Of a DNA stretch of 64,000 nt, positions 1 to 40,350 are shown in pieces. Each line of letters opens with the position of its first letter. Position 1 is the first letter of the stretch. A program made the position numbers and the translations under genes. The DNA is taken from contig NC_087251.1 in NCBI RefSeq assembly GCF_037042905.1, forward strand, positions 2,358,001-2,422,000. Reading direction: 5' to 3'. This DNA is from Lytechinus pictus. Taxonomy: Eukaryota. The notes beneath the pieces were generated by a model that saw only the letters and a program-made list of their open reading frames with translations, was not told the origin of the DNA and searched no databases.

Positions 1-81
1 AAATATTGAAAAATAACAGAACTTCTACACTTTAAATATGGTTATTTTCTACTGGGGTTCACTAACTTTTGAGCACCACTG
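1..81. mobile_element. Right end of a Tc1/mariner-like element
   Basis: Ends ggggttcactaacttttgagcaccactg (reverse complement CAGTGGTGCTCAAAAGTT, Tc1-like TIR); other end is outside the window. Confidence 0.45.
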
Positions 82-128
82 TGTATAATACATGTGATCT
101 AATAGAATGTATTATTGTGTATCTTCAG

Positions 129-244
129 TATTGGTTGCCCACCTGGACATTGTTGTACTGTGGCCAAACAGTTCTTACGCTGTACCCTTCATCAACTTGC
201 ACCTAATGGGGTTTTCCCTCAACTCTTCCTCAGCAAGATTGAAG
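129..244 (+). CDS. UNC79: UNC79 coding exon
   Basis: cttcag|...|gttagt; IGCPPGHCCTVAKQFLRCTLHQLAPNGVFPQLFLSKIE. Confidence 0.88.
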
Positions 245-3200
245 GTTAGTTCATCAGTCCACATCTCATGATGGTTTCATCAGTTTGGGTCATTATCAAC
301 ATTTGGGACCTTTCGCAAACCTTAGGGTCCCCTAGCACAAAAGTTAACGCTTAATCATACACTTGATTTTTTTTAATTTTTTTTTTTTAATTAATTTATT
401 TCCAATTCATTAAAAATACAAGTTGACATCATGATCATGTACAAACAAAGAGACAATAAAAATTAAAACATATCATTGAAACATAAATAAATACAGACGA
501 AAGTGATAATCAAAGTATTATTGCCAAATCATTGAAACAATATAAAAACAAGACGAGAGATAAATGAATGGGAAACAGGAGTGTACTAAAAAGCCAGGAG
601 AAGGCTTGTTAAAACGCACACACCCAAAATAAATAAATTCTTAAAATAATTGTAATATATGGATGCGGCAAGTAGCAAAAGAACAAAAACAAATAAAACA
701 AAAACATCAACATAAAAACATCAACAACAAGACATATAAAGCAAGTCTAATGGAAATTATAGTACGATGAGGATCTTAGTAACTTTGGATCAGTTTATTT
801 TTATATTGCTTTTTAAAAATATTATGAAAGGTAATATTAAATTGTTCAAGATTCAGACTATTCCATATTGTGGGACCAGTGTGACGCAGTGAAAATTTAG
901 ATAAGTCATTCTTGTAATTCCATCTGTGAAGTTTTCGTGAAGACCTTGTATAGTGATTATGTATATTACAATTGAAAGAAAACATATTCATTAATTGAGG
1001 AGAAAGGGTTCCAGTATGATACCGCTGCATTAAAGAAGCAATCTGTAGTTTATTAATATCTTGTAATTTAAGGGTTCTTAACAACTTAAATAGTTTCGAA
1101 GTAGGTGCTCTATAATCTGATCCCATACAAATACGTATAGCTTTTTTCTGTAATAAAAACAGTTTGTGTAGATGGCAAGAATATGTATTTCCCCATATTG
1201 AGTTACAATAGGTCAAATGTGATAAAATGAAAGCGTTAAAAAGAGTAAATAAAATGTTTTTTGGCAAGTCATATTTGAGTCGATTTAGAACTCCAATAAA
1301 ACGAGAAACCTTATTACAAATAAAATTAATGTGAACATCCCAACAGAGTGTGTTACTCAATATAACACCTAGAAATTGCACAGAGTCATAGAATTGGAGA
1401 CGGGTTCCGTCTATCTTTAAAACAATGTTGGAAGTATTATATTCACTTCGTGAATTGAAGTGTATCAGACTGAATTTTTTAGCCATCAAATTACCTACTA
1501 ATTCATTAAATTTTGAAGATAAATAGTATTTAGATGGTTCAGATGTATAGAGACCATCATCTTATTCGATATTTTCTAATATGTTGTCTTCAGAAATCGT
1601 AGATTTATGAACGTTTGTAATTTCATCTTGAGAGTGAAAGGTAGATAAAAACAAGGCCTCGAAATCAGTGTCGTCTAATTCGTAGAAGGGTAGAAAATGA
1701 GAAAAATTTGGTTCTTCGTTCGAATCTGAACAAGAGATATAGTTTAAGTCCTCAGTAGGAGTCAGATCAGTAATTACAGTGTTATTTTTTGACATTACGA
1801 ATACAACAAAAACAAAACAGGGCAAAACAAAAATCAAATTGAACAACAACAAAAAATCGAATCAAATATCAAATATTGTAAAATTGAAATGAGAATATGA
1901 GGGGAAAATCTTTCATTGGAATGCATCAGGAATGTCTAGTATTTATTGCACATCATACTAGTTTGCGTAGTTGTTCGAAGTGTTCATATACTTTCAAGGT
2001 CCTTTGTATTTCGTATGGATTTTTTGATCAACTTTCCTTGCGTAGCCGGTACAAGTGCAATTATTCTACCGTCGAAAGACCACGCATCCTTGACTTTCTT
2101 ATGACTTTTTGCCGCCCTCAGAAGTTCTTGATTGGTCTGAGTAAGTGCTTCATCAATGGCCATACCAGTTCCTTTCAGCCTTCGTCGAGCTCTGATCACT
2201 GCGTTGCGTGCCCGATACGTGCAGAATTTGACGATGATAGCGCGAGGCTTCTTATTCTTAGCGCCCTCTGTAGTTTCCTTCCTGTTAACGCTGGTGTTCC
2301 TTGGAGCCAAACGATGAGATCGGTCGAGGTCTGCTTTTGAAAGTGGCACACCGAGTTGCTCGCTCGCAATCCTACATACAACGTCATCTGTATTTTCGGA
2401 CTCACTCTCTCTGACTCCAAAAAACTTCAAACAATTGCGACGAGAATATTGTTCAGCTTCATTCATCGCTATTTTCATGTTGTTAATCGACGTTGATTGG
2501 TTGTCGAGAATGCCATTCAAACGATTAATCTCCTCCTCTCGAACTTTTAATGAGGCTTCAAGCTCCAGCAGCTTTCCTTCACTTTGCTCAATCCGTTCTA
2601 TTGTATCTGAATTAGTTTTCTCGAGATGGTCAAGGCGTGAAATGAGGGCGGAGATTTTTAAGATTGATTGTACATTATAGTCAATAGAATCTAACATAGA
2701 AAACTGCTCTACAATCAATGCTAAGCTTTGTGTTACAGGGGGTTACAGGCCCTACAGATCTGCTTTTCGTGTGCAAAATTCTTTCCAGCGACACCCGCAC
2801 CATACATGCATGTACATTACGACTGATGGCTGGAGATATTCGAAATGCAGGACCTACAATAGATTATGACATGGATAAGAAAGTGGTTATTCAAACAAAT
2901 CGAGTACATATTGAGTGAGGAAAAAGTTACTGAATTAAGGCTTAGGTATAGATCATTACAGTCCATTAAATCGATATTGCATTTAATGTGGATTATTGGT
3001 GGATCTCTGGCAATTGATTCCATGGGTCAAATCACCTCTCCAGCAGAAACCATTTCGCATGCGTTGATTATGTACACAGCATGTATACGTCTGAACAAGG
3101 AGTTACCTTGGTCTGAACACGTACCAGCCGAAGTTGCGGGGTTTTTTCTTTTGTTTACTCCTACACAAGCGATATGCCTCTAGCACACAATGTAATGGGC

Positions 3201-6200
3201 ATTATGTTTTACTTTCCCCAGAAATGGGGGATTAGATTCGAATTCCCGGGGGGACCACTTCCATTGATGAGTGGATACCAGGCACGACCATGCGGTTTCG
3301 AAAAGCACCCTAAACAAGGGAAGCAAGGCTTTTCCAGATTATGAAAATGCATCTCTTAACAAGTATTTAGCTTGTGAAACCCTACAAGTATTGAAAACAT
3401 ATCCTCCTTCCTTTTCAGTATTTAAAACATCGTTTTTGACACCCTTATAACGTTACATAGGCCTATACGTAACGTACTTGCCCACTCTTTCCCTTTTTAC
3501 GCGTGGTCGCGCCTGGTATCCACTCTTCAATGGAAGTGGGCCCCCCAGGCGGCCTCTCGAGCTCTGGGAGGAACCAAATGTGGCTTTGGAAAGTCGTCCT
3601 AAATCGGATATATCGCTGTTACCATAGTAGCAACCAGAATTTTGCACACGAAACGCAGATTGAATGTTTCCGTTCCAGATGCGAAACGAAAAAAAATCTC
3701 ATGTCACACAATTTGCATTGCAGGACAGAGTTTTACAACCATGATGATGAAACCAATGTCTCTTCCAGAATAAACTACCGTCGCAAATAAGCGTTCGCAT
3801 TCTCCAACGAAAGGTCGGGATTGTTTGATTAATACTTGTGATAAAACCATGTGGAAGACATGAGAAGACCTTTTGTCCTTGCATTTACTGTTCTTTTTTT
3901 TTAAACTAAACTTTATATCAGATCTTCCTTTCTCAATATTCAAACCTGATTTTGTCTCTTCAAATGTATACCATTATCTAGACGAAGATTTAAAAAAAAA
4001 CAGATTCTTTAGAAGGAATCTATTGACTGTAGTATATTATATCCTTTTTTCCTTTACATACAATTGTATTCTTTTTTTTTTTTGCTTGATTTCATCATTT
4101 ATTATATTTTAGATCAAAGCTTCCTACCTACAATGGCATCATCTCTTCAAGATTTCAATGAACTCAACCCAACTGAAGCTATCATTCATCTTCTTGAGGT
4201 TTGTCCTTACACTATCTTACATTCTCTTACAGTGTCATAATTTAGTATGATTATACTTGTTATATATTAAACCATATATGAGTTCTGCTATGAGAAAGAG
4301 TATAAAGGAATGTTCAAAGTAAGTTGGCATGACTCAAGAAAGGTAATCTAAAAGAAAATCATTGCTCTAACCAAAAGCAGCAAACTGAGAGTGGATACAA
4401 CAGGATTTTTTTTTTTGCTAACAAAGGGCATGTATATATGGATTTCCAAAAATAGAAGAAAAAAAATTTAAAAATATTTTAAGTCCAAAATTGCCTTTTT
4501 TCCCTTCAAAGTTAGTTCAGCAGGCAAAGCTTCATTGTGTGTTAATCAATGACATTTAAATGTATTCCTTTCTCACTTGCATTTGAGCAGGGACTGAATG
4601 ATAGACGTAACCTACCACCGCTACGTACCATGTTAGTATTAATGAACATGGCAAACTACATGGATTCATTACCCATTGAAGGCTCTACAGCTTGGGGTAA
4701 CCTTGTACCTCTCTTTGATACCTTCTTCAGAAAACTACTTACATCCATGCCTGAAAATGTAAGTTAGACATACCAATTGACAATTACTATCAAGATACTA
4801 TATGCATATAAACCTTTGTAGATCAATTCTTCATTTGCCCATAAAACACATGTGCATAAAACTGTATAGTCCATAGAAATGATGGGATATATTCAGGAAA
4901 TAAATGTAATTGTTAGACCCGATAGTCCATTTTATAATACATAGGGCAATAATATTGCTTCCAAGTGAGCAAAAAAATGCATTCATTAAATACTTCTGGC
5001 ATGTTTATCATGAACTCCAGAAATTAGACATTTAAAAAAAAATCTTTTGTTATTCATGCTAATGAAGAGATGAAGTTACCACAAGCATCAAACTTAGAAA
5101 ATATATTTGGCATACGTTTCAAAACAAAAAAATATTTACTCTGAATTACAAAGAATGGGATCAATTTACCCCTTCATATATCTTAATGATAAATAATGTG
5201 ATTAAAAAATTGTACTTACCTTTCTGTAATACATATTTTCTCTCTTCGTCACAGTGTGATGTTAATGATCTGTTCCGAATCTTTGAGGTCCTTCTGCGTA
5301 GTCCAGCCACAAAGAGTCTACCAACCTTGTTGGACCCTATGGGCAAACTGATTAGCTTTGCCATAGTGAGAGCTCGGTTTAAGCTCACTCATCTATTAGA
5401 GATCTGTACCCTCTGTAATAGGATCTTTGCAAAGGTAACAGCAGCTTTATTAGTCATCCTTTTGAATTCATCTACTATTTTATTCCATATTCTCATTATT
5501 CATGCTCTTCCTTTAATTTGACATTCATTAAAGATGTACTTTTTCATCTTTTTTTTCCTTCATGATTGGTTTAGCTCTGCATCCCTCTCTGAATTTATTT
5601 CTCATTCTTATTATTCTTCTCTCTATCCACTCATTCCATTTTGTCACAACTTCTCCACATCTATCTCTCTTTGTTTCTCTTGTGCATTATTGCAAGTTAG
5701 GTTGTGAATTACCCTGTTTGTTTGTAACAATACTTTGGGAGATATTAAACCAACCTCCTTTCCAGCACTATTAAAATATGACTTTCTGAAGAGAATGTAA
5801 AGGTAACCTAGAAACATTCATGCAAAGTTTCCCATCTTTCATATGATATAGGAGAGGGAGAAGCAGTCATTTGCACGGGTAGTGTCTCTAGAACTGGTCC
5901 AGGCTTTGAAGTTTAAGACCAATCTTCCTGATATCAACCTGATTCAATTAGTTCAGTTTGTTGTGATGGATGCAGGAGGAAAGATGAGTGACTTTGGTCA
6001 TATGGAGGCTGATATAGAGGTGGAGATGGCTATGGTAAGCACACAATTAAATCAATGCAGGTGATAATAAACCTCCTGGGAAACACATTTTAAAATGGTA
6101 ATGGTAAGCTAAGTTGCAATAGTTTGTATTCAACCTAGTAAGCATTGTGGAGAACAGTAGATGAGATGATAACCCTCACTGAGAATCAGAAAAATCAGAA

Positions 6201-9200
6201 GGAAGGTGATTAAATTATAATCCCATAGTAATGAGAGCAAAAGCTCATTTAATTTGGTCAACAACAAAAATAAATTAATAAAAAAATAAAATAAAAGCAC
6301 TTGCCCATATGGCACACTGGACATGGTGTGATTTTATTGATTTTATAAAGTGACAACCATATAACAAACGAAAAATGTTTGACAGATCAACTTATGCACA
6401 TGGTGTGACTATTCAATTAGGAATTACATAGTAATTTTCTATGTAATTTCTTTGTAATATATTCTCAGTCTGACTAAGGCAGAGACATTAATATCAATTG
6501 TGTGTAGTTGAGAATCCATCTAGTTTTTGTTTGATTTTACAGAACTCAACAGGAGCCACAGACTGTATGAGACAATATATCAGTGATGCTACCGAATACA
6601 TAGGAGATCTTCATACACTCACTAAAGTAAAGGTAGGAAATTATTTTACTTAAAGTATCTCTACAATTAACATATTTAGTAATTCATTAAGTTCTTAAAA
6701 ACAATAATGTTTTAGAAAATGTTACTGAGCTTTTGATACATAAATCATGATGATGTTGCATGAAACAGTCTACATTAAAAATTGAAAACTTAAGTTGGAA
6801 TAATTCTGCTATTGACTTAAAAACTCTGGTAAAAAGTAGCCTGAGTTTTCTCTGTTAAATAGTTTTATGTGACAGTACCCAGATCATGAATATCTGTTTG
6901 ATTTCTTTTGTAGAATAATCTTCGAGGAGGATCTCAGAATTTGAATGAGGATACTTTGGGTAGTCAACTGAAAGCTGGAGTAGCTCAGATAGTTGCTTTA
7001 GAGTTCACCAAGGCTAACGGTCGAGAAGGACCAAAGGCTATACAAAGATATCTACCATGGCTCTATCATCCACCATCCGCTGTTCAACAAGGGTAAGAAG
7101 AGAGTAAAGTCATTGATTGATTTTATTATGTCTTTAGATAGTGATCACCAACTTTGCATTGCCTAAAGAAAGTTCTACCAGATAGCATTTTTGGTTACCC
7201 CCTACTCCATCGTTATCAACCCTTAACTCTCTCTGTCTTTCTCTAATTCACTTTTTCTTGTAAATCCTTTTGTGATTTATTTCTTGTTTCACATGAGAGA
7301 TCTCTTTTTTTCCTGAATATTAGAATAATGTAAATGAATATTTTAGTATGCCTGCCGTATGGTCCCCTCAAGCATGAAGATTCAATTGGCGCATTATAGC
7401 TCATCATTTTTACTTTGTAGTAGAGTGATAGTAAGCAACATAAGGAAATATCACTATTTATGAATTTTATGAAGATTATCAATGAACTTTATTTATACAT
7501 CCCAGTTATGAATAATAAGTGCTTCTGCAAGACAAAAATTCCAACCCAATATCTAACCTCATGATTATTATTTTCTTTTTGCAGACCCAAGGAATTCATA
7601 GACTGCATTGCCCATGTTCGTCTGTTGTCTTGGTTATTACTTGGTTCCTTGACCCATGCAGCCCTCTGCCCACCATCCTTCACTAATAGTGGTTTGATCA
7701 GTCAGCCTATACCATTAGATGCTGGTAACCATATTGCTGATCACATACAGGTTATATTAGCAGGGTTTGCTGAGCAGTCTAAGGCTTCAGTTCTTCATAT
7801 GTCATCTTTATTCCATGCATTCATCCTCTGTCAGGTATGGAGGGTCATCAGAAGGCCACTATTGTTCACATATTCTGTTATTGGTTCAAATCAATCTTAA
7901 CTATGAACATATTCACTTGTTATTGGTTAAAATCAATCTTAACTATAGAATACCATTCATATAAGTTGCACTGTCAATAGGTAGTGTGTACCTGGGTAAG
8001 CACCTACTATTAGAACAATCATTGCCGTAGTCTGCTCAATTTGTGAAAAGGAATCTCTTGTCAGTTTGTATATATAAAAAAAGTGTATCTGCTTGTTTGC
8101 TTGATAATCCTAACCTTGTTTTGTATTTCATACTTTTACTGAATATTGCAATTTAAAAGTATGCCTGATAATAACAATAATAGTTGGATTTATGAAGTGA
8201 TTTTTGCCTGAGGATACAAAGCACTGCTATTATTACCCCGGCTTTAGCTGTGCTGCCATATAGCCGCTTAAGCATTCAAGGAATTTCTTCCTACTGGGGA
8301 CCCATTGATTCACCTCACCAGGGTTGAGTGCAGCACAATGTGGGTAAATTTCTTGCTGAAAGAAAATACGCCATGTCTGGGAATCGAACCCACGTTTCTC
8401 AGATTGAAAGAGGAGAGTCATAATCACTAGACCACAACGCACACAAGTAGTTGCTATAATCAATTTTTAAATTGCTTTACAGTACCTTCCCCCATGTTTA
8501 TATCAGTGTTGATTACATAATCATTTTTTCTATCAATATTAAACAGCTTTGGACAATGTACTGTGAGCAGATGGCATGTATGAATACTCCAAACTCTGAT
8601 GCTCATACATCAGCTACATTCAGTATTATGGATTTCTGGAGTAGAGTAACTCCTGGTGTACTACAGCTTCTCTCACACTCTAAAGTGGTAAGAATACACC
8701 TCATCATAGTCATCCATCATATTACTTCATTTATCTTACTTAAAATTAAGATTATAAAAATCTGGCTCCTTATTTGATATCAGTTATTTATGTCTTTATC
8801 AACATAAGTTTGTTTTATTATACAAAGTGGTCCCTGCACATTGTCTATTAGAATTATAGAATTGTTTATCTAACAGGTTAAGCTTGACTGCTCCATTGCC
8901 CTATAGATGTCAGCTTGTCATATATGTTCATGTTGGTCATTTGTCACATAACTAGGTTAAAGGAGCTTTGTTTTGTTTCAAATCCTATTTCTATTATTTT
9001 ATTATATTTTAAACCTTTTTTTCTTTACTATAATATTGTGATTTTATTCATGATAGTTGGCTGATATGGTGAACCTTCACTTCTTGAGCTTGATGGAAGC
9101 TCTCCAAGAATGCAACTCTTCTGTTTTAGCCAAGGTAAACTTATGAAGTCTGGTTTTATTTCAAACATAACATGACTCTGAGACATACAATATCTGTGTG

Positions 9201-12174
9201 TTTTTTTCCTCTTTTGAATAAAAAGGTCGATGTCTGTTGGACACATTGTATTAAAAACTTAAAGAGTAATATTGGAAAAGAGAGGTCCACAAAAAGCAAA
9301 ACTTGAAATAAAGAGAAAGGGACAAATGAAGAGAGAAAGAACAAAATCAACAAGAAAAAAAGGGGGGATATTATAGAGCTTACAAATATAACTATAGTTT
9401 TAAGTATGGTTACAGGTTTAGACATAGCCTGAGGACTCTGATATGTGAAGGATTGATGTGTTGTGCTTTAGATACAAGGCTATGCTATGGTAGAGAAGGA
9501 AAAAAATGGATGATGATAATCTTGGATTGAAGCAAGATGAGGTCATACCAAGCTGATGGATTACTCCTGAAACGCCAATTTAGAAGCTTTTGCCTGATTC
9601 AAGTTTATTCATATATGATAGTTATGCCTTTTTTTCATTAATCTACTGATCATATATGATTTTTATAAAGTTGCCTAGGAATGCAATAATTGTGGTTCAT
9701 CAGAATTAAACAAAATTGACTTCACTTTAATGGATGCTGCCATATTTTGCTGCTTAACCCTATCTAGGCCGGGGGGGCTTGGAGCCCCCCCCCCTCAACG
9801 ATTCACGCAATATTTTCGCTGCACAAATTTTTTGTTACCGCGCCGCTCACTGTCTTTTTACTTTCAAGTCTTGCGCAACTTTTGAGACCAATTTTGCGTC
9901 ACCCGGGTACGTGGTTCGGAAATTACGCAACATATCTAAGTGCATGTCAGACCAAAAATTGCTCCAAAACATGATTTTGTGTACAAAGTCAATGCAAATT
10001 GTGTTTTCAACCAAAAATCATAAATGTATGATTATTTTTAGTTTTGCTGGTCTAAATGTATTTATTTTATGCTTTTTATGATCTCAGAAGAGTCCCCAAC
10101 AAATTTCATTGAAAAAACAATGAAAAACAAAAGGTAAAAAAAAAGAAATGCATAAGAAATTGCAAAAAACAATAGAATACATAATTTTGTTCATGTACAC
10201 TTGCTAAGAACACCACAAAGAGTTTCTATACCAAAAATTAGAACATTTGGAGCTTTATTTAGGGAGTAAGAGGAAAAAGTATGATTTTGCATACTAATTA
10301 CGCATAAATTAGCATAATCACTTAATAGCAATTCGCATGAAATAAATCACTATACAATTTTGTAGATTATGTCCCAGACAACCCGCGTGCCAATTTTTGG
10401 CGCGGTCGACGGCCATATGAACTCCCAAAATAGGGTTAAGAATATAGTTTAAAATTGAATGTTATGAACCCTAGATAGGGTTAAGAATATAGTTTAAAAT
10501 TGAATGTTATGAACAATTGAAATAGGTACCTTTTGCTCTTTTTATTTATTAATACTGTTTCCCATTACCTTTTATACATTTTTTTTCACTTTTTTCCAAT
10601 TAAATCATAATTATACATTATGTCATGGCACTTTCATTACTCATTTGTATACACATGTTTTATATAATTATCATTACTGTTAAAATTGTATTTCTCACAC
10701 TACAAAATGATTATGATTCTTTGAAGAAAAAAAAACATGAAAAACCCTTACCTGTCTGATTTTATGTTAATTGGAGTGATCTGACATCTTGATAGGCTCA
10801 AGTGGTTGCCATATAGCATTGTAAGGCCATGTGTTTTCATGCTTAACACACTCTCATCTTAGTTTCTGGAGGATAGATCATTTCTAAATATAGGCACATA
10901 GACAAGGAATGAATGATTTAAACAGGAAGATATGTGATTTATACTCTCAGGATCTCTACATGTATGCTAACTTCTCTTATACCATTCTCATGCTCTATTA
11001 GTAAAACTGATTATCATCCATCATTAATCATGTATTTGTGCTTTTATGATGATTTGGGATATATGTAGTATATACATATATATATAATCTGTTTTAGAAA
11101 CATTTACTTATTTTTCATGAGCTTCAGACTTTAAGTTTGACCTGTAGATCTTGTGCATAGACAGTTAATGTATTTCAAATAATCAAGAGGGGTGCAATGG
11201 CTCAGGTTATCTTAATTTTATTTTTCATATCTTTTTTATAGCTTTTCCCTATGTGGGCTCCAATCTTGTTTAGCTATCCTTCCAAGGTAAGTTTGATATT
11301 TTCATTCATTTTTTTTCAATTGACTTTATTAATTTGATGTCTTCAATATGCAAGGGTTACGGTAGCCTGAAATCTTATATGATTAAAAGAAAAGTCCAAT
11401 CGTATTATAAATTGTAGCAAGTTAATTGAGTATTTAAATTTTTTTTAAACTCTTTGCACGTTTTGTTCAACTACAGTCCACATACAGCAGACTGCCAAGT
11501 TCGACTCAAGTCACATTCTATTCACAATACACACAGAGTGCATTAAGTCTATAGTTCATCCACTCATACACAATAGTGATGTGCGCATCGCATTGTACTG
11601 TGTACACAAAGTTTTTCTTTACAATGAACCAATCAAAAGCTATTGTGAGCTGAATAAGAACAGCCCATGCAAAACCCTTCTTAAGGTAGCACTCTGAAAT
11701 CAATGTGGCACAAGAGTAATTCTGTCTGTGGCAAAGAAGCATAAGAGTGAACTTTCATTAATTTTACATTTACATGTAAAATAAAATATGATAATGAAAT
11801 ATGTTTTTGGTATATGATTATTCATCTTGTTAAGGTTTGATGAAACATAAAACAGCAATAAAATTTAATCTGAACATCATTTGTGTGGATTGTATGATTA
11901 AACATAGATGGTTGTATTTTAATTACTTTTATTTCTAATATTTGTAATGTTTAATACAATGATTAATTTCTTCCCCATTTTGTAATGGTAGCTCCCTGGA
12001 AGCCTACAGGTGAGACTGCAGAATTGTGAGAACTTTCCACCTCCAAGTCTGATGAAAGGAGAGGTCACATCTTACCATTCTACCACACTACTCAAATGGC
12101 TGAAGAGATTGCAATTCAAAATGGGACAGATTGAGATCCAATCTTCTGCTGCCACTCAATTTTATACAGTATAG
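129..12174 (+). CDS. UNC79: UNC79 (NALCN channel complex subunit), 3' part: join(129-244,4113-4198,4591-4758,5255-5434,5852-6034,6543-6632,6914-7092,7585-7834,8547-8687,9057-9134,11242-11286,11992-12174)
   Basis: Twelve AG/GT-bounded exons splice into one open frame ending ...KWLKRLQFKMGQIEIQSSAATQFYTV*. Motifs LHQLAPNGVFPQLF, QDFNEL, RYLPWLYHPPS, PKEFIDCIAHVRLLSWLLLGSLTH and MVNLHFLSLMEALQECNS match my recollection of the UNC-79 C-terminus. The 5' part lies upstream of the window. Confidence 0.93.
776..1795 (-). pseudogene. LINE ORF2 remnant: N-terminal leader and first endonuclease motif fused in frame to the post-RT C-terminus
   Basis: ATG at 1795, one TAA at 1562-1564, then SKYYLSSKFNE...FSLIHFNSRS|EYNTSNIVLKIDG...FLGVILSNTLCWDVHI...YCNSIWG...HYTRS...GPTIWNSL; no YADD/RT core. 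Confidence 0.85.
1984..2652 (-). CDS. LINE ORF1p (coiled coil + L1-type RRM/CTD), 5'-truncated but open
   Basis: Heptad-like region, then EQYSRRNCLKFFGVRE, DRSHRL, PRAIIVKF, RRRLKGTGMAIDEALT and AWSFDGRI, typical L1/Transposase_22-type ORF1 motifs. Confidence 0.85.
   Translation of the reverse strand, partial: SALISRLDHLEKTNSDTIERIEQSEGKLLELEASLKVREEEINRLNGILDNQSTSINNMKIAMNEAEQYSRRNCLKFFGVRESESENTDDVVCRIASEQLGVPLSKADLDRSHRLAPRNTSVNRKETTEGAKNKKPRAIIVKFCTYRARNAVIRARRRLKGTGMAIDEALTQTNQELLRAAKSHKKVKDAWSFDGRIIALVPATQGKLIKKSIRNTKDLESI
3245..3549. mobile_element. ~305-bp MITE with ~50-bp TIRs
   Basis: ccggggggaccacttccattgatgagtggataccaggcacgacca / tggtcgcgcctggtatccactcttcaatggaagtgggccccccagg. 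Confidence 0.8.
4113..4198 (+). CDS. UNC79: UNC79 coding exon
   Basis: ttttag|...|gtttgt; (D)QSFLPTMASSLQDFNELNPTEAIIHLLE; phase matches previous exon. Confidence 0.88.
4591..4758 (+). CDS. UNC79: UNC79 coding exon
   Basis: gagcag|...|gtaagt; GLNDRRNLPP...FDTFFRKLLTSMPEN. Confidence 0.9.
5255..5434 (+). CDS. UNC79: UNC79 coding exon
   Basis: tcacag|...|gtaaca; CDVNDLFRIF...LCNRIFAK. Confidence 0.9.
5852..6034 (+). CDS. UNC79: UNC79 coding exon
   Basis: atatag|...|gtaagc; EREKQSFARVVSLELVQALKFKTNLPD...EVEMAM. Confidence 0.9.
6543..6632 (+). CDS. UNC79: UNC79 coding exon
   Basis: ttacag|...|gtagga; NSTGATDCMRQYISDATEYIGDLHTLTKVK. Confidence 0.9.
6914..7092 (+). CDS. UNC79: UNC79 coding exon
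   Basis: ttgtag|...|gtaaga; NNLRGGSQNLNEDTLGSQLKAGVAQ...RYLPWLYHPPSAVQQG. Confidence 0.92.
7585..7834 (+). CDS. UNC79: UNC79 coding exon
   Basis: ttgcag|...|gtatgg; PKEFIDCIAHVRLLSWLLLGSLTH...SSLFHAFILCQ. Confidence 0.93.
8169..8444 (-). mobile_element. tRNA-derived SINE, family 1
   Basis: A box TGGTCTAGTG, B box GGTTCGATTCC, core cactcaaccc.ggtgaggtgaatgggt.cc, (TAT)n tail; five copies in window. Confidence 0.88.
8547..8687 (+). CDS. UNC79: UNC79 coding exon
   Basis: aaacag|...|gtaaga; LWTMYCEQ...MDFWSRVTPGVLQLLSHSKV. Confidence 0.92.
9057..9134 (+). CDS. UNC79: UNC79 coding exon
   Basis: tgatag|...|gtaaac; LADMVNLHFLSLMEALQECNSSVLAK. Confidence 0.92.
9758..10480. mobile_element. piggyBac-type non-autonomous element
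   Basis: TTAA|CCCTATCTAGG ... CCTAGATAGGG|TTAA; homologous inverted copy at 28733-29448. Confidence 0.85.
11242..11286 (+). CDS. UNC79: UNC79 coding exon (45 nt)
   Basis: ttatag|...|gtaagt; LFPMWAPILFSYPSK. Confidence 0.88.
11992..12174 (+). CDS. UNC79: UNC79 terminal coding exon
   Basis: tggtag|; LPGSLQVRLQNCENFPPP...LQFKMGQIEIQSSAATQFYTV, TAG at 12172-12174. Confidence 0.9.
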   Translation, partial: LPGSLQVRLQNCENFPPPSLMKGEVTSYHSTTLLKWLKRLQFKMGQIEIQSSAATQFYTV

Positions 12175-14155
12175 GCAGCTTGTCAGAGAAATGTTACCAT
12201 TTTTGGGGGCAGAGATTAAAGAAATTTACAGCCAAAATTAGACAGATTGTGATCTGATCTTCAGCAGCTGTTCAGTTCTACACTGTTTAGTTATCTAGAT
12301 TGAGAAGGTATTAAAGTCAGTTCAAAATATGCTTACTAATGTTTTGTGTATAGCACATTTTATTTGCAGATTAGATGATTTTTCAACATGTCAGTGACTT
12401 TTACCTGGATGTAATACAAATGGAACATATACATATATATGTCTGATGATGATCACACTGTTTGATTGAAAGTATATTTATTGATCCCTAGTAATTGTTT
12501 GTATGTACCTTGATGATATACCTTACAGGCTGTCAAGATAATGTTTAATTATGGAAACATTACAGCTGTATGTAGATTATTATTATTATGGAAAGTCATA
12601 TTAAATACATGTGGCATGTATATAAATTCACACAGTGGAGTTATATTCCATTGAATAAGTTATTCATAGAAGATTCTGGTAAATGTTACTTAAAAATTAT
12701 ACTGCTATGTATGTGATGTGATTATGATTTTAAGAAAAGGTATTCATTCATTAATAAACACAGTATTTATTATGCGCCATCTATCAAGTAAATTGAGGCG
12801 CATTCATTTATTATAAATCAAAATATTTGATGGTGCACGATGTATGTACAATAATTCATTTTAAGACAAAAAAATGTACTTTTTCTTTTACCACAGTATT
12901 AAATTATTTTAGTATTCATATCAGTGATATGACTAGTCATATTCATTTTATCATTGGTATGAATTATATTGTAATACATAGAGCTCAGTATCGCAGAAAT
13001 TTCTATTTATTGTATAATTATGTGATTTATCTAGTTAAAAAAAATTTTATGTAAATTATTACATTGATATTTGTGATGAGTAGAATTTACTTATATGTAC
13101 ATGAAAAGGGCAAAAAATTATTCACAAACATGATCATTTGTTAGATTTTGTATTTAATGCATGATTTATGTGGCATGGTTTGATAAAATAGAAATATTCA
13201 CAAAGAAATATTGACATATTTCTTGCTCTGATGTAATGTCATATTCCTTTTGCTAACCTAGGAGTTGTTTTACAAAAATATAAGTGCCCCCCTCCCCCCT
13301 TAAAAAAAACCAAAAAAACACTTAAATTCCCAATTAGATATGGTAAGAAGCATATCACTGTATCGGTTGGATCACTCCCATGGGACCCACTTGCATTTGT
13401 CAATGAGATTACTCCTTACATATCATACACAGCATGTATTGTTACCTTAAACATGAATTTTAGTCTGACTTCATTCTGTGAAACACCCCCCCCCCCTCCC
13501 CAGATGATGTTGGATATTGTTGAATATGGACAATAAATTACATTGAACCATTACTAATATCATTAATACATGTGTATAGATATGTTGTACAGTAAATAAA
13601 AAAATCACATGATGAGGTCTCTGTTAACATAGCTCATAATTTTTATGTCAGTTACATCTTTGTAAATTGCATCTTTATATCTTGAGGAAAATGCTCTGTT
13701 ACCAGTATATGTGATGTTGAATATTGTAAATGTCATATGAGTATTGTAATTTGTGGTTTGTGCACCAAGGCTAACCTCATCCCAGTCCTTGATACAGCTC
13801 ATTACCCCCTAAAATTAACTACGTTTTTGTAATTATGTGTGAGGACATTTGGTTTGTTTTTAATGAGGCATTTTAGCCAATTTATTGGTCTACTGCACTT
13901 TATGGCATTGTAAAAGAAGTAGATAGTTAGTCTCTAAAGAATCAAAGCTATGATTGATGTAAACTCACAAACAGGTCTTTATAAGGTGCTATTCCAGTCT
14001 CTCTTTGGATTATTCATATTTAAAAAATAAAAAAAGTGGAAGAAGAAATTTGAAAAATGTATATTAAGTTTAAGCCATGTTTGGATTTGAAACCGTGTGA
14101 ACCACTTCACTTTTACCTGTCGGACAATGAATTTGACTTTTCCATTTGTACACCA

Positions 14156-15198
14156 TTTTATGTCTCGCCAGCATAGCAGAGCGAGACTATAGGCGCCGCT
14201 TTTCCGATGACGGCGGCGGCGTCAACATTGAAATCTTAACCAAGGTTAAGTTTTTTAAATGTCATCATAACTTAGAAAGTATATGGACCTAGTTCATGAG
14301 ACATGGACATAAGGGTAATCAAGTTTTACTGAACATCCTGCCTGAGTTTCAGGTCACATGACCAAGGTCAAAGGTCATTTAGGGTCAATGAACTTTGCCA
14401 TGTTGGGGGAATCAATATCGAAATCTTAACCAAGGTTAAGTTAATGAAATGTTGTCATAACTTCGAAAGTATATGGACCTAGTTCATGAAACATAGACAC
14501 AATGGTAATAGTGTATCACTGAATATCCTGCCTGAGTTTCACGTCACATGATTACGGTTAAAGGTCACTTGGGGTCAACAAACTTTGGCCATGTTGGGGT
14601 TATTTGAGGAATCGTCATCATAACTTTAAAATTTTATGGATCTAGTTCGTGAAACTTGGACATAAGAGCAACCAAGTATCCCTAAATATCATGTGTGAGT
14701 TTCAGGTCACATAAATAAGGTCAAAGGTCATTTAGGGTCAACAAACTTTGGTAATGTTGGGGTTATTTGAGGAATCGTCATCATAACTTTAAAATTTTAT
14801 GGATCTAGTTCATGAAACTTGGACATAAGAGCAGCAATGTATCCCTGAATACCCTGTGTGCGTTTCAGGAACATGGCCAAGATCAAAGGTCATTTAAAGG
14901 TCAATGAACTCTGGCCGTGTTGGGAGTATGTGTTGAATTGGAATCATAACTTGAGAAGTTTATGGATCTAGCTCATGAAACATTGACATAAGGGTAATCA
15001 AGTATGAATGGTTGTTTTGCCCATGTCTTAGGTCACATGATCATGGTCAAAGGTCATTTTGGGTCAATGGACATATTTTATTATTATATTAGTGTTTTCT
15101 TCTGTAAATAATTATTCATTAGCTGTTTTCAAAGGAAGCACTACTGCTATATCGAATTGCGTAATGCAGGCGAGACTGTCAGAGGCGTTCCACTTGTT
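14156..15198 (+). mobile_element. Helentron-associated (HINE/DINE-like) element with five ~160-190-bp internal tandem monomers
   Basis: Subterminal inverted repeats gtctcgccagcat (14162) / atgcaggcgagac (15164), T-rich flanks, no TSD, tandem monomers; second copy at 38153. Confidence 0.75.
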
Positions 15199-17923
15199 TC
15201 TTATTTGTATAGACATTATCTTTTGGTTTTTCTGTTATGAGTTCAAAATGAAGTAGAATATTATATTGTTTTTAAGAATATGTGATGACCCTTTTGCTTG
15301 GGGTGTATATAATTTGCATGTATACACCATTTATATGTTATTCATTTATATCATTATGTTATCGATAGATAAGTGTACTGTGCCAAAAAATTGCATTGTA
15401 ATAATAGAATTTCAAATTAAAGACCAAGTCCACCTGAGATACAAGTTCAGTTCAATCAATCAATGAATAGCAGCCCAAACTAAAAATTCTATCAAATAGT
15501 TACCTCATTTTTAAGTTTTGCATGTCTTATGCACAGTACCCCCCTTAAAAGAGGGGGCACACCTCTGTTTCAATGGCACTTTTACATTACAAATTTTAAT
15601 TTTGCTTGTCAAAAAAGGGGCATGTGCCCCCTGTAGCCCCCCCCCCCCCCCCACACTCCCGGAGGTGCCAGTGGCTATGGCAGCTTTCCAGTTTGTCATG
15701 TCTTACAACTCTCATGGTACACTGGTCAGAAACGGCCCATATACTAATGATACTAGATGTACATGTCATGAGTAAGATAGTGGGTGGAACGGATGGCTGT
15801 GAGGAGAGGTAAAGGCCATCATAACGTGTCTGATTTTGAAAACCATGCCCGAGTGGAAGTAATTTTGTCATGGAAAAGTCATGGAATTCAATTTTCAAAT
15901 TTATGTGGGAACCCTTTTAGAGCATTTACAAATATGTGGCTTTTCTGAATAAAGAATATCGAATGGGATTTACAAACGTTAATGTGTAAAATTATTTGAT
16001 CTATATTACAAATTAGCAGTGGATATTGTAGCATATTGCTTATGATGAGACTGTATTAGATGATGAACGATATTGACCATACTATAGTGGTTATGGTGTC
16101 ATTAAGATGAGCAGATGAAAAATAAAATGTCACTGAACATGAAGAGCCTGCTTGGTCAGCCTTGCATAAAATTGCCTAATGTATCAGACTGGATAGCAAA
16201 TTTTACACTTTTCTATAAACATTTTATCTGGTCAGTTGTCTTGAATAAGGTATTTTCTTGATTAAGATATCCTTCTATCTTAAAGTACATGGCCCTTTCC
16301 CTGATGGTACAATATATGCATATAAATTGTGATTTCCATCAATTCCTCTCTCTTGTCCCATCCCTACTCTCCCATCTCTTCCCCTCTCTCCCCCTCTCTC
16401 CCCCTCTCTCCCCCTCTCTCTCCATCTCCCTCACCTGCCCTCTTAGTTCTTTTTTTTTCTTTTCTTTATCATTTTATATCTCTATCTTCACGGGGTATCA
16501 ACATCCTTGTTTTCTGATAGAATATATTTCTTTTGTTTTGATAGAGACAATGAACATATCTCTTTATCAATGGAAAGTGATTATTTATCAAAATGGAGCC
16601 TGTTTGAGGATTTAAGGAACATAGAACAATTATTTCACTGTGTTAACAGGTTATAGATAACTTTTTTTTCAAAATCTGACCTACATTCTATGAATTATTT
16701 TACCATTGATCTGAATGCTGTTCTTGTTAGTGTTGTCAAATTTCTTAATAACTTGTCTCTTGTCTGGCTATAATGGTTCCACTTGTGCAATCAAGTATTT
16801 CATGGTTTCACAGTCCAGTTAAACGAGATGTGCAATTAGGTATCTCTGAGTCATCACAAAGACTAATATACAAGCAGTGGATGCAAATGGTAACTCTCTA
16901 TTTTGATTCTCAGCTCTAACAGGGTTAATTTCCATCCATCAATAGATTTGTTAAATAATCGGTGCACTGTTAAAATACAAACTGCAGTAAGCATCATTAT
17001 ACTTAATAAACTCTCAACTTATTCCTTGTATATGAAAGATCGTCTGAAATTTCACTCCTGATTTCAGGTGAACTTTAGTCTATTTCTGAAATAAATTTCT
17101 AAAGACCATTTTGGACTTGGCAAGGGATATTGACCACTATCTAGGTTGAAGCCTTGGTAAGTTTAGATGATTATGGTAGGATTGGTCATTTTTTTACTTC
17201 ATTTTTATTTATTATGATGAGCATCAAAGTCAACATGATATTTTTTTGGGGGGGTGCTTTTCCTGCTTCTCATCAACTAAAATGAGAATCTATGCTTATT
17301 TTTTCTTAAATTTTAACCAAACTGAAATTGCTATTTAACCCTTCCAAATAATTTCACTTGTATCTGATATTATTTGCTCAATTGTTTTACTTTCTGTATT
17401 CATTAACAACAATCCCAGAATGAAACCTTTCAAAATATGATTTTATTATTATTTTAATTTGATAATACATTTCCACTCAGTTCATATTCTCTCTCTCTCT
17501 CTCTTTCTCATCACTTTTGTCATTTTAATATCATTTACCTAGTTGATGGATACATTTGTAAAAATATTATGACATTAAAAAATTACACCTTGTTGAAATG
17601 GTACCCTAAGTAACCATGTTATGTTTGATATTGGTTATTAAGCCTACTTTATATCTATACCAAATTGTAGATTTTTTGCTATTTGTATCAGTCTTGTTTT
17701 TTAATTCTATATTCTACACATTTTTCACCTTGTGTACAATTTGCTATTAGATGTGTCCACATTGATTTGTATAATAGTTTTTGTCATTCCTTTCTAGCCA
17801 ATTTGCTGATTAAATGCTATATCTTCCCATAAATTATTGGCTTAATTTCTATTGCTTTTTGTCTCTCTTGCTTAATGTAAAATTTGAGTTTAAATAATGC
17901 AGTATTCCATCTAACAATGTTAA

Positions 17924-19394
17924 CAGTGGCGTAACAGGCGGGGGGGCAGGGGGGGCAAGCTGCCCCCCCTGGCTGATTTTACCGGGAAAATAAAAGAAAA
18001 ACGGGAAAAAGAAAAAAGGAGAGAGAAAGAAAGGGAAAGGGGAAGGAAAGGGGAAAAGGAAAGGAGGAAAAGGAAAGGGAAAAGTGAAAAGAAAACGAAG
18101 AAACAAATATTTTTTTCATGGAAAAGGAAGGAAAGCGGGAAAATCTACGAAAGAAGAACATTTGAGAAAGAACAAATCATTCCGAAATAGGCCTATGTAA
18201 TGCAATAACACGGTGGGAAATAAATTAAAAGACGACAAAATGGCAAATAATAGCGGGAAACGAAGGTAGAATGTAATTAATCAAAAGCTAAATTGGAAAA
18301 CAAAGAAAAGGGACAAGAAAAAAAAACATAACACGACCGGGCTGCCGATGATTGAAATTAAAGAGCGGAAAGAAAGATGAACTGCGTACAACATTGTGCT
18401 ATAAGCTTGCTATATTTTATGCAAATAAGCTACCTGGGCTTTGCCCCAGACCCTACGCAGTAGGGGCTCTTCATATATAACCTTCAATTGGCTCTATAAC
18501 GCCCCCCCCCCCTGTTCAATAAATTTCAATCACTGGCATACAGGCGCGCGGGGGGGGGGGGGGGGCTTGGTTCCACACCCAAGAGGAAATATAAGAAATT
18601 ATAGGAGACAATGAAATGTGTTATTTGCTGAATATAATGGAAAATCTATCACATAATTAGAATTTAATTTCAATAGTCAATTTTTTTCCAGCTCGCTTTG
18701 CACGCTGGCGACTTTAGCGCAATTGGGTTGAATAAATTTGTTGTGTAAAAGCTATATTCTGTATATGCCCGCGATTTGATTAAAATAGCGGCAATCTGCG
18801 AGGTTTAAATGGCTTTGATGTCAAGAAGTTCCGGGGGCTCCGCCCCGGACCCCAACCGCACAGCACTGCGTATGGAATGGTTGGGTCATGGCCCCAAAAA
18901 GTTCTACAAACAAGAACAAAAAAAGGAGGAAAGAAAAGCAAAGGAAAAGTGTAGGATGTGATTTTATTTACTGAATATAATGTCAAAAAATAGCTCAGAG
19001 TTAGATTATCATGAAAATGTGATTTTTTCTCGCTCGCTCGGGACTTATATAAAGCAGCTTTTTAGCACATGTGCTCTACTGCGCCCACAGTTCAGAGTGG
19101 GGTTCAGACCACAAAAAAGGAATCTAAAGAGAGAAGAGTTAAATATATTATTCATTGGATATCATGTCAAAATCTATCACAAAATTTGATTTTTGTATTA
19201 AAAAGGTCAAAATTTTTGCTCGCTCGCTTCGCTCGCTCGCATTTTTTTTAAAAGATAAATTCTGCCCGATACGCAATATCTGGCCTTCTCAAAATAGTCG
19301 CCTCATTACACAATTACGCCTGTTCATACCATGATGTGACCGGGAAATTTTTGGCTCTTGCCCCCCCTGGCCACCGACCCCTGTTACGCCGCTG
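17924..19394 (+). mobile_element. Non-autonomous hAT element (~1.47 kb)
   Basis: TIRs CAGTGGCGTAACAGG / CCTGTTACGCCGCTG; perfect 8-bp TSD AATGTTAA (17916-17923, 19395-19402). Confidence 0.92.
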
Positions 19395-21459
19395 AATGTT
19401 AATTGATACTTTCAGTTCATCTGTATTCAAATAATCAAGACCACACCTCTAGGGGGCATTGATGCCATGTTCTCGATGGGGGCGGGGGCAAAAGAGATAA
19501 ATGCTTCAAATTTTTGGCCTGCTCTGCACACCAAATTATAATACAGAATTTTGTGCCAAACAAAATTATTACGTTATAAGTTATAAGTATTTAAGTGTTA
19601 TGATTAACTTTCTGATGATTTTTAAAACATTCATTTGCATTGCATATTAAAATTTGTTCCAGTTGTCAAAATTAGTGGTGGCAAATCAATGTCTCGATCC
19701 CCCCCCCCCCCCTAATTACTTGACACCTCTTCTTTTTTTTAACATGGTTACCTGAAAATTTGTCTATTTTCTAGTACTTCTCCCTTTGTTTTATTCCTTT
19801 CCTCTTATTTGATTTCTGCTCCTTTTTTCCTATTTTCCCTGCCTTTATATTTTTGGGGGCCTTGGAAGGGGAAGGTGCTTGCTTCAGCCATAAAATTATT
19901 TGAAAATCATGACAGCCATTGCAGAAAGGTCGATCAGCAACTGAAGACAAGGCATGAACATAGTAAAAAGATAATTGTTTAGAGAAAAGGGTTTAGAGGA
20001 TCATAATCTATCACACCTATGGGCACCTATGTAAGAGAATGAATGGGTATTTCATTCATCAGAATCTTATGCTGCTACAAGAGTGATAATACATTTGCAG
20101 ATTATGGAACTTACACTTCCTACACTCTGAACAATGTACTCAAATATTTAAGAGATATTACCTTGTCAGAGGTGCGCAATGAAGGCGTTTTACGGGGCGC
20201 CTCATTCTCTTCAAATTTTAAGGTGTGCCTTCTGCTCCCCTCCCCCCCCCCCCCATCAGCCCCTGGAAATGTTCTCATTGAAATTTGTAATAACAATTAC
20301 AATATTTTTGTGATTTTTTAACAAGAAAATGTTTTTCAATAGAAATTCTAATGAGTGTCCCTCTGCATGACAAGGCATCTATTCCAATTTCAGTAGACTG
20401 TTGATGTGCTTTAAAAACTTATCACAGATTCTAAATGAAGTTACTTGCAATAAGAACATGAATTTGGAATTTCTCCTTTACTTCCGATACGGCTTTCATG
20501 AAAGTTCCGATCAGTATGTAGCAAAAATCCCAAATCTTTTAGATTCAAAATTATTGGATCGGATGTATATAGCTTATTTTATTATTATCATGATTTACAA
20601 AATTCAGATGAGCTAGCTCCTATTAAAGTTTTGGATGAGCCGAGCCCCTTTTTTTGGGGCAACAAAAAGAATGCTGAGGATATTCAAATGAGTATTTAGG
20701 TAAATATTGTATTAATAATGATTATTGAAGCTTATGTCATATATAGGGCTGCCCATGTGTATCATATAGCCCTGTCCATGATGGGTGTCTAGACAGGTTG
20801 AATAGCACTTTGGAAAAATACTGAATAATTTCATTGTTTGACAGCTATATTAATACACTATCTATATCTATTTTGGGAAATCTTTAGGGTTAAATTATTC
20901 GGCAGCCAGCAGTACCGTCCAAAGTTTACAACGCCCTCATCGCTAAAAATTCAACATCCAGCAACAGGTCCGAAATTGAAAACAAAAAGATATTTGGTAA
21001 GTGATTTAAATAAGATAATCAAATTTTAAAATGCAGATATAATGTTATATGGAAAGAACGTGGCTCATGTGACATTGAAGTAAAGGTTAATTGGCAAATT
21101 CGACATTTATTTATGAAAAAGTGTGAACGAGTTGTGTGATGTGTGCTTTGCAGACGACTCGCTTCTTGTTATCAATTTTCACGAGAAAGTGCCCCCAGAG
21201 TTTCGGCGACCACACAGTGTAGGATACCGTCTGAATCTCACACGTGTGTATGTAAAGCCAAAAAGTTAGAGGAAAAAACAGGCTTGTCACGATACCATTT
21301 CAGACGCTCTATGACACAACCAATAATTGACCAATTCTACTTTCCTTGTTTTTAACTTTTAAAGTTGATTCTAATCTTAGCCTTAACTTAAATTTATTTG
21401 TATGAAGAAATGAGCAACTGATCAGATCAGGACATACGGTACGGTATTTCTCTAATTAA

Positions 21460-25597: not shown

Positions 25598-25681
25598 ATG
25601 GCCAACAGAAAAGTTCATCGTCTTGGTCTTGATGAAGATATCGTAACCCGGCTCACTCGGCATAAGATATTCACATGTCAG
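25598..25681 (+). CDS. RAD51B: RAD51B first coding exon (exon begins 25582)
   Basis: acceptor tatcag 25576-25581, aaacATGg start, MANRKVHRLGLDEDIVTRLTRHKIFTCQ|gtatgg. Confidence 0.9.
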
Positions 25682-38152: not shown

Positions 38153-38987
38153 TTTTTGTCTCACCTGCATAGCAGAGTGAAACTATAGGTGCCGCTTTTC
38201 CGATGCGTCGTTGGCAGCGGTGTCAACGTCAAATCTTGACCGAAGATTAAGTTTTTGAAATGACAGCATAACTTAGAAAGTATATGGACCTAGTTCATGA
38301 AACTTGGTCATAAGGTTAATCAAGTATTACTGAACATCCTGTTTTAGTTTCAGGTCACATGACCAAGATCAAAGGTCATTTAGGGTCAATGATCTTAGAC
38401 CATGTTGGGGGAGTCAATATCGAAATCTTAACCTAAGGTTAAGTTATTAAAATATCATAACTTTGAAAGTGTATGGACCTACTTCTTGAAACATCCTGCC
38501 CGAGTTGCAAGTCACATGACCAAGGTCAAAGGTCATTTGGTGTCAATGATCTTTGGCCAAGTTGGGGGTATTTGTTGAATTACCATGATAACTTTGAAAG
38601 TTTATGTATCTGATTCATAAAACTTGGACATAAGAGTAATCAAGTATCACTGAACATCCTGTGTGAGTTCAGGTCACATTACCGAGGTCAAGGCTTATTA
38701 ATGTCAATGAACTTTGTTGGAGGTAATTATTAAATTGCTGAAACAACTTTTAAAGTTTATGGATATAGTTTATGATTTGCAGACATAGGGGTAATCAAGT
38801 ATCACTGACAAGTCTTGGGTCACATGATCAAGGTCAAATGTCATTTAGGGTCAATGAACGTAGTATTGTATCATCATATGAATGGTGTTTTTGTGAATAA
38901 TTATTTTATAGTAATTTTCAAAGTCAGCACTGCTGCTGTATTGAATCGCATAATGCAGGCGAGACTGCCAGAGGCGCTCCACTGGTT
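38153..38987 (+). mobile_element. Helentron-associated element, four monomers
   Basis: Same ends (gtctcacctgcatagcagag... / atgcaggcgagactgccagaggcgctccact) and monomers as 14156-15198. Confidence 0.75.
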
Positions 38988-40350
38988 ATTTATAAAATTA
39001 TGAGTGCAACAACTACATGTATATAATATTGAATTAAGCTCTTTTACATTCACTCATCTTACTTGGCTTTAATCAATACTATGTGGTACATGGTGTAATT
39101 TCATTACATTAAATTTTTAAGAAATGCAAGAAGTTTTTTAAAGGAATGAAGTCATCGCTATAAAAATCGCTATAAAAAAAAAGAGAAAAGAAGAAGTTAA
39201 GAAAAGGACTCTCAATATAAATCATTTCTGATGCATACTTTGGCATTCTAAAGAGGTTTCAGGAGTTTGAAGTCTGAGGCATAGGTGCGAATGGAAAGGC
39301 ATGCATGCTCCTCGGAGTGATATTACATTGACGGCAGATATGACAAATGACTGTGTGAAACCTGTTAGGATACGCAGATAAACAGGACATAAATATGAGT
39401 GTGTGGGACATGCATGATAGCGTACCTCTAGATTGTATGCCGTTACTGCAGATAGGTGATTGTCATTATGGGTTGGGACATCATTAAAGGTATTGTAGAA
39501 TATTGGTAGATGCATCCCATCCTAAGAAAGATTTTATTTTCTAAAATATGAAATTCAGATGTTCATAAGTACTAGTACCTCAATTTTTGGGTGTCATAAA
39601 TTTATGATATTTCTTTTCAAAATATGCCCATTTCATTAATATAAAGATTAAAGAGAAATACAGTTACTTGTTTGAAGTGAAAATATGATACATTACTCTT
39701 GCATGTATCGTTTTTTTTTACATTTGTATACTTCAAACATCTTGAGGATTTGTAATTTTAATGTTTAAAATCATCCAATTTGTCATAGACAGAGTAACAT
39801 CAATGTCTCATTTTAATTATTTTACATTGTTGTAGTTAAAATGAACTTAATCCAAGAAATTATTTTTTTTGCTTTTTGCCATAGGAGTGACAATTGACAA
39901 GATGTTTAATATACTCCCATTGATGAATATGTGATAGATGTGACCAGTGTATTGTAACTTTTATACCACACACAACTGGGAATTTAAGTGTGATTTTTAG
40001 TCAGACTTAAATCCTCTATTTTATTTTAGTTAGATTTAAATCTTTGTGAAACACCCCCAGACTACGAAGAGCTATGAGTGTGATATGGAGTTGAATCTCC
40101 TATCAACATTCGTCTTGAGAACTCTCATTTAATATGAGTCTGGGGGCTAGTTTGTACCCTCCTCCAACCCATTGCACAGGCCCTAAACCTTCCATAATAT
40201 ACAGAGAAGTGGCTCACAAATCATATTCTCTCCTCTGATGCATGTCTTTATGTACCTTCTTCAGTTTTGTAATTGTTGTACTCTGTGTCTTATTGTCTAG
40301 CAAAGTTCTTAATATCCTTGCTTTTGTTTGTCCTATCTTATAGTTTCTTA

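Follow-up and report, generated by a model that had tools for sequence, protein, structure and literature searches.

Does a LINE copy that keeps an open ORF1 frame and both ends of ORF2, and has lost the endonuclease (EN) plus reverse transcriptase (RT) core between them, belong to a non-autonomous family, or is it a single defective copy? The question is raised by a minus-strand element near the start of a 64-kb stretch of Lytechinus pictus DNA, here called the window. An earlier note on this DNA had proposed an ORF1-retaining parasite of its parent LINE, possibly encoding a catalytically dead mini-ORF2. Most of the anatomy described there was borne out by our analysis, and the step from anatomy to family was not. 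The element is probably one young CR1-group LINE copy, dead on arrival, with an internal deletion that came from a one-off event.

The copy lies on the minus strand at 372-2652, with its 5′ end at 2652. Read from that end, it consists of an ORF1 of 222 codons (2652-1987), a 188-nt spacer, the ORF2 remnant, a 3′ UTR of ~385 nt and an A-rich tail (Table 1). A tblastn search of the window with two full-length ORF2 relatives returned this locus only.

Table 1. Features of the LINE copy and of the host repeat around it, in window coordinates.
Feature	Position	Strand	Remarks
Host repeat, left part	315-364		Inverted likeness of 315-355 to 2714-2763; X5 joint 349-2653; loose ends
Target-site duplication, 3′-end copy	365-371		GATTTTT on +; once in empty host-repeat reads
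A-rich tail	372-390	-	12 A at 377-388; sequence
3′ UTR	391-775	-	Terminal motif 395-416 common to relative L001
ORF2 C-terminal part	776-1444	-	222 codons + stop; FLG motif after RT core, helical C-terminal region
Deletion junction	1444-1445	-	CGA AGT / GAA TAT; 716-721 codons gone
ORF2 start, acidic leader, endonuclease motif I (HFNSRS)	1445-1795	-	117 codons, TAA at 1562-1564
ORF1-ORF2 spacer	1796-1983	-	Sequence; X4 record 2 covers spacer
ORF1, L1-type (coiled coil, RRM, CTD)	1984-2652	-	222 codons + stop, 5′-truncated, no start codon
Target-site duplication, copy at truncated 5′ end	2653-2659		GATTTTT, same 7 letters as 365-371
Host repeat, right part	2660-2763		Summed depth in bin 2641-2760: 186,063 (X4), 229,153 (X5)

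Four public sequencing runs were matched to positions 1-3600 of the window at 85% likeness. X4 and X5 are DNA runs of organism A, X8 comes from organism B and is RNA only by guess, so that it may be DNA, and X23 is raw RNA labelled as organism A. The flanks of the element proved to be one very high-copy, MITE-like repeat with inverted ends, with a summed depth of ~186,000-229,000 at 2641-2760 (summed contig depth is, here and below, a rough guide and not a copy number). In all four runs there are records whose fit breaks off at 2653 and whose remaining letters match window 335-364; in X4, 28 of the 30 letters beyond 2653 match this stretch when compared by eye. As GATTTTT occurs once in the empty repeat and twice in the window, it is a 7-bp target-site duplication, which may instead measure 9 bp if the T run slipped. 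The hallmarks of insertion are all present, namely an A-rich 3′ tail, the target-site duplication and 5′ truncation, and the empty host repeat is known from the reads. Insertion by an APE-type LINE is thus demonstrated: the element has a tail, its ends carry a duplication of 7 bp, and it is truncated within ORF1 on the 5′ side. The earlier note had likewise described the poly(A) and the duplication as intact. In the RNA run X23, the right half of the host repeat has a summed depth of ~840, and 721 reads carry the empty-site letters.

Downstream of the LINE, two exons on the plus strand at 4546-4764 (E 1.4e-4) and 7583-7840 (E 4e-32) match the last fifth of UNC79. The LINE therefore probably sits antisense in an intron of unc-79, a placement that rests on the downstream exons; further likely exons of this gene were noted near 4150-4240 and 8520-8640. 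The surroundings hold several other repeats. A second high-copy repeat with inverted ends occupies ~3230-3550 (summed depth up to 372,000 in X4), where a 3207/3539 joint between opposite strands occurs in both X4 and X5. Positions 1-82 are the end of a multi-copy element with a depth of ~9,000-15,000 and with loose ends behind 82 in X8 and X23; we take it to resemble a Tc1/mariner terminal repeat. Further into the window, 17924-19395 and 48332-46767 form an inverted pair of a 1.5-kb repeat with 77% identity, and 14157-15204 and 38153-38993 hold a pair of elements related to each other, each built internally of tandem units that measure 163-190 nt. Finally, a short plus-strand frame at ~25598-25690 starts MANRKVHRLG and has no match in Pfam; it resembles the first coding exon of RAD51B.

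On the minus strand, the ORF2 remnant is covered by two frames running from stop to stop, 1562-1861 and 776-1561, which are one frame split by the single TAA that the earlier note had seen. Translation starting with the ATG at 1795 and ending before the stop at 776-778, with X at the TAA, gave 339 residues. It passes, in the order described before, from the leader LPFYELDDTDF...SKYY to FSLIHFNSRS and then to the C-terminal FLG part, EYNTSNIVLKIDG...FLGVILSNTLCWDVHI. Full-length relatives bear out the assignment of EN motif I and of the post-RT FLG motif to the two sides of the junction. Remnant residues 14-117 align to residues 8-116 of these relatives with 35-38% identity (E ~1e-15 to 1e-17), while residues 118-339 align to residues 832/833 to the end of P0002-P0004 with 66-69% identity, the best relatives of this C-terminal part being proteins of 1,053-1,054 residues. 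Measured against them, ORF2 has lost 716-721 codons (2148-2163 nt, where roughly 2 kb had been estimated), and the ends are joined in frame at 1444/1445. The lost stretch runs from just past EN motif I to beyond the RT YADD motif: in P0002, the EN motifs after motif I as well as YRPIS, FMDLSKAFD, GVPQGSILGP and YADD fall within the gap, and HFNARS and FLGV lie outside it and are kept. Base 1444 lies outside the best fit of either junction side: the A lineage fits as far as 1445 from one direction, and X8 as far as 1443 from the other. The join was thus probably blunt, with no more than a single base added or altered.

Pfam returned no family for either ORF2 piece. The model of the 222-residue C-terminal part has a pLDDT of 95, and the best structural match of this predicted structure is human L1 ORF2p 745-1061 (Z 10.9, rmsd 3.8, 182 residues), a segment that we take to be the end of the palm, the thumb and the wrist. 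For a helical model, this Z score stands moderately above background, the next unrelated row having 6.0. A Foldseek search with the same model gave no match at E 0.001, with L1 ORF2p reaching an E value of only 0.75. In the protein sets searched, nothing was closer than 71% to the C-terminal part, so that the host's own LINE family is absent from these sets.

ORF1 was compared with 11 close relatives of 263-277 aa, to which it is 48-60% identical, and its first residues in the window align to their residues 41-60. The frame is open, as the earlier note had stated, but it is not a coding unit: 40-54 codons are gone from its start together with the ATG, and no Met occurs before residue 59. A stretch of 30 codons that stays open 5′ of 2652 was ruled out as part of ORF1 because it sits in the host repeat. 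Among the named relatives, those nearest in rank come from Diadema antillarum. A profile search matched ORF1 to the L1 ORF1p structure 2YKO (E 9e-6), and its predicted structure matched the L1 ORF1p fold in Foldseek (E 2.7e-7, TM 0.59); Pfam gave coiled-coil noise only.

The nearest sequences to the copy are those of X8, in which four coding pieces, 980 nt in all, differ from it at 11 places. X4 and X5 represent a more distant lineage, with a divergence of ~2% for ORF1 and ~6% for the leader. The copy is thus young, and it ends inside ORF1, both as described before. In the 3′ UTR, the X8 piece over 405-661 carries 23 differences. The depth over 481-720 is 3,100-4,700 in X5 and 1,100-1,400 in X4, exceeding that of the 3′ part of ORF2, and the pieces are ~90% alike; this high depth reflects either many short truncated copies or a second element with the same tail.

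ORF1 (1987-2652) and the ORF2 C-terminal part (779-1444) run for 222 codons each without a stop or frameshift, again as the earlier note had it. At 1.1% divergence, ORF1 would stay free of stops with a probability of 0.73, and the C-terminal part with a probability of 0.67. Open frames of 222 codons are therefore no more than chance for a copy diverged by ~1%, and one stop per ~560 codons is what decay gives. At position 1564, X4 and X5 read GAA in all of their depth (146.8/146.8 and 325.2/325.2), so that the TAA is private to the copy when set against the A lineage, the scope of this comparison, the coverage of X8 lying elsewhere. A tool-chosen 40 of 427 difference rows were listed; 27 of the 40 fall in the frames, and 13 of these lie within X8 coverage. 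Among these listed sites, 10/13 are shared with X8, 7 of the 10 being synonymous, and the remaining 3/13 are private to the window against all three runs and change an amino acid in every case (Fisher p 0.07); one of them hits a Tyr kept in P0002-P0005. Small as the numbers are, this is the pattern that a master under selection and a copy free of it would give. Private non-synonymous changes are, at the same time, expected in any single copy, a family member included.

The copy marks a recently active CR1-group family with an L1-type ORF1 in the host. Because it lacks both the promoter end and the start of ORF1, and codon 78, before the junction, is a stop, we infer from its sequence that it makes neither ORF1p nor the mini-ORF2 that had been suggested as a possibility, and that it would decay neutrally.

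Whether other copies share the junction bears directly on the idea of a deleted master elsewhere in the genome. Such a master would have a 5′ UTR and a full ORF1, lack EN-RT and be transcribed, and the present copy would be one 5′-truncated offspring of an Ag-Sponge/HAL1-like, possibly small family; the parent's ORF2p would copy the master in trans via the shared 3′ end. Elements of this kind exist, the CR1 group included, according to the accessible text of PMC5786205, and the part of PMC3442997 available reports for Anopheles CR1-2 that 12/20 copies share three blocks, 8 of them with a full ORF1. The youth of the copy also leaves little time for a later 2-kb loss, and ORF1 is within easier reach of a cDNA of 2.3 kb than of one of 4.4 kb. 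Moreover, the in-frame join together with GAA at the site of the stop in other copies would make one open 339-codon ORF2 possible, and the C-terminal part that was kept forms a compact unit in its model. On the other hand, the left break falls just past EN motif I, so that this piece of the endonuclease is still there.

The X8 run speaks against such a master, as it has only the other form at the junction. Its record 19 is 336 letters long; one part matches 1260-1443 with 4 differences, and the 152 letters that follow are unlike the window. The X8 depth in bin 1441-1560 is 0.13, where 0.134 is expected if the fit ends at 1443 and 1.56 if it crosses by 31 letters; X8 is shallow, at a depth of 3-5, and 1445-1560 lies outside its coverage. 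A deleted form of equal abundance would usually make the assembler break the X8 contig at the junction. X4 and X5 hold at least one contig with a fit that starts exactly at 1445 (row 1488, from_end 44). For the X4 contig at 1488, with a depth of 118.9, the depth sums fit a start at 1445 somewhat better than a crossing, both being compatible.

The depth of ORF1 in the two DNA runs is also low, at 2.0x (X4) and 1.4x (X5) the flank contig, against 9.3x and 18.5x for the 3′ part of ORF2. This profile is the usual 5′-truncation gradient with few ORF1-bearing copies. An amplified family with ORF1 is thus hard to accommodate in organism A, itself another lineage. In the raw RNA of X23, of which ~25 in 100 of the run was read, the depth was 0 in all 15 bins across 841-2640. 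A search for sequencing runs containing the element listed none recorded as RNA.

Searches for the junction itself, each of little weight, gave a similar picture. The junction pattern matched once in the window, at the locus itself. It had 0 matches in metagenome_contigs, where the host is unlikely to be represented and the only relative of the C-terminal part is L001 (69%). EN motif I joined to the FLG motif without an RT core was found in 0/216 related proteins. With the query included, 177 of the 217 proteins have the FLG motif and 37 have an EN-motif-I-like word before it; the spacing between the two is 29 residues in the query, 622-775 in 34 proteins and 60-62 in P0087 and P0195. The latter two were ruled out as deleted forms, since both hold YADD/FADD. 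A second copy of the junction was thus seen neither in the listed records of X4, X5, X8 and X23 nor in metagenome_contigs or the related proteins, all of them sources other than the window's own genome. As the X8 contig, the depth ratios, X23 and the junction searches give it no support, the run, database and protein evidence together lowers the deleted family, and we regard both the master and its copying in trans as unlikely. A narrower form of the idea, a family in which, in contrast to the descriptions of HAL1 and Ag-Sponge, a catalytically dead 339-codon mini-ORF2 (acidic leader plus C-terminal region) is under selection and the master keeps a full ORF1, is very improbable; its protein could bind its own RNA or the parent's ORF2p, helping capture or damping the parent's RT.

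The junction is spanned by none of the reads or contigs seen, as would be the case if an assembly collapse had made the deletion. However, the 64-kb window contains no N and no second copy of the element, and the sequences that meet at the join are not repeat copies of each other. We consider a collapse the least probable of the explanations weighed here.

How, then, did a single copy come to lack ~2.15 kb of ORF2? An intact master with ORF1 and an EN-RT ORF2 of ~1,050 residues would have been the source of the insertion. Reverse transcription took place at an A/T-rich site (TT/AAAAATC on the element's strand) within a small repeat and left the element antisense to the downstream unc-79 exons. 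The loss of ~2.15 kb is plain from the alignments, and that it happened at this locus in a single event is what we infer. A skip of the RT forward on the RNA during insertion has, given the youth of the copy, somewhat less than an even chance of being the route; removal of the 2.15-kb stretch by later DNA repair is possible, and less probable than the skip. Either would give the anatomy from which the earlier note had argued that the deleted RNA was mobilised in trans. That argument is not supported, because 5′ truncation is silent on the timing of the internal loss and a join falls in frame with a 1 in 3 chance. In the text available from PMC3414825 and PMC6740152, internally deleted non-LTR families are called rare, and two origins are proposed for them: a template jump, in which non-templated bases are possible, or non-homologous recombination. 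The accessible part of a bioRxiv paper on L1 insertions in tumours reports short deletions at inversion points and gives no rate for a same-strand skip of 2 kb.

A third route would be removal of the 2.15 kb from a full-length RNA by the host spliceosome before reverse transcription, as in SpIREs, by which the junction could recur without a deleted master. Spliced L1 RNAs do retrotranspose, mostly as dead ends, as stated in the available text of PMC5860796. At the present junction, the three closest relatives read RSMF after motif I, and coding of this stretch as AGT ATG TT would give a GTATGT donor. This donor requires the acceptor side to supply 1444-1446, whereas the X8 fit ends at 1443. 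In addition, the right break corresponds in L001 to GGA ATG CAA TAT, where the letters needed are not preceded by an AG acceptor; the DNA identity to L001 is only 71%. Splicing is accordingly most improbable, marginally more so than the selected mini-ORF2. For the preferred reading, a one-off deletion, the copy matters little, since LINE copies with truncations and internal deletions are a common sort of debris in genomes.

Both kept ORF2 parts match proteins with an APE endonuclease and an RT (Pfam PF03372 and PF00078), and the element is filed as a CR1-group LINE. The finer label is probably L2/Crack/Daphne-like, which we assume from motifs. A loose CCHC pattern was found in the last 250 residues of 0/33 full-length relatives and is absent from the query; the missing C-terminal CCHC knuckle is a difference from L1/Tx1. 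Crack and Daphne are not clean clades, as far as the accessible part of PMC13343379 goes. An L1-like Tnp22 ORF1 (types IIA-C) with 2YKO as its top match has been reported for CR1 and L2 subgroups in the portion of PMC4120745 available. The present element agrees with CR1-group LINEs carrying a Tnp22 ORF1, as partly documented there, in its L1 ORF1p fold, the 2YKO top match, APE and RT relatives, the lack of a CCHC and a strong 5′-truncation gradient. The same sections of PMC13343379 call a poly-A tail unique to Zenon among the CR1 group, whereas this copy has an A-rich tail. The terminal motif of its 3′ UTR matches L001 in 22/25 letters (blastn, E 0.006); in L001 (2612-2655), the shared motif TGAATTGGAAATAAA is followed by short TGAAT-type repeats, not poly(A), and the tail type thus appears to vary within the lineage of the copy and L001.

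Among internally deleted non-LTR elements, R2 SIDE (PMC3414825) and Persaeus, derived from CR1 Zenon (PMC6740152), resemble this copy in having an internal deletion and differ in being short elements with many copies, in the text available on both; in the parent of Persaeus, a direct repeat of 5 bp flanks the break points (PMC6740152, same sections). Human L1 SpIREs, as described in the accessible text of PMC5860796, are likewise retrotransposed copies with an internal gap and dead ends. Their splicing affects the 5′ UTR and ORF1, whereas here the gap lies in ORF2 and the X8 fit argues against splice ends.

The closest systems are HeT-A (Drosophila, Jockey-derived), HAL1 (mammals, L1-derived) and Ag-Sponge (Anopheles, CR1-derived), which the available part of PMC5786205 groups as ORF1-present bipartite non-autonomous LINEs. 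Like the present copy, as far as that part goes, they keep a 5′ part with ORF1 and the 3′ end of the parent and have lost EN-RT. They differ in being multi-copy with a complete ORF1, whereas here there is one copy, with an ORF1 that lacks its start and with 339 codons of ORF2 left. The complete, translatable ORF1 with a 5′ UTR that marks the HAL1, HeT-A and Ag-Sponge type is absent from this copy. In the literature searched, largely without subscription papers, we met no ORF1-keeping non-autonomous LINE family with an open mini-ORF2, and Repbase-type supplementary listings might hold such a family. Should the in-frame mini-ORF2 turn out to be selected, it would be a natural test of the post-RT region of ORF2p without the catalytic core. 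Should the junction turn out to be multi-copy, an echinoderm case would be added to the short list of ORF1-keeping non-autonomous LINEs, and the mini-LINE family would be a further member or variant of these known systems.
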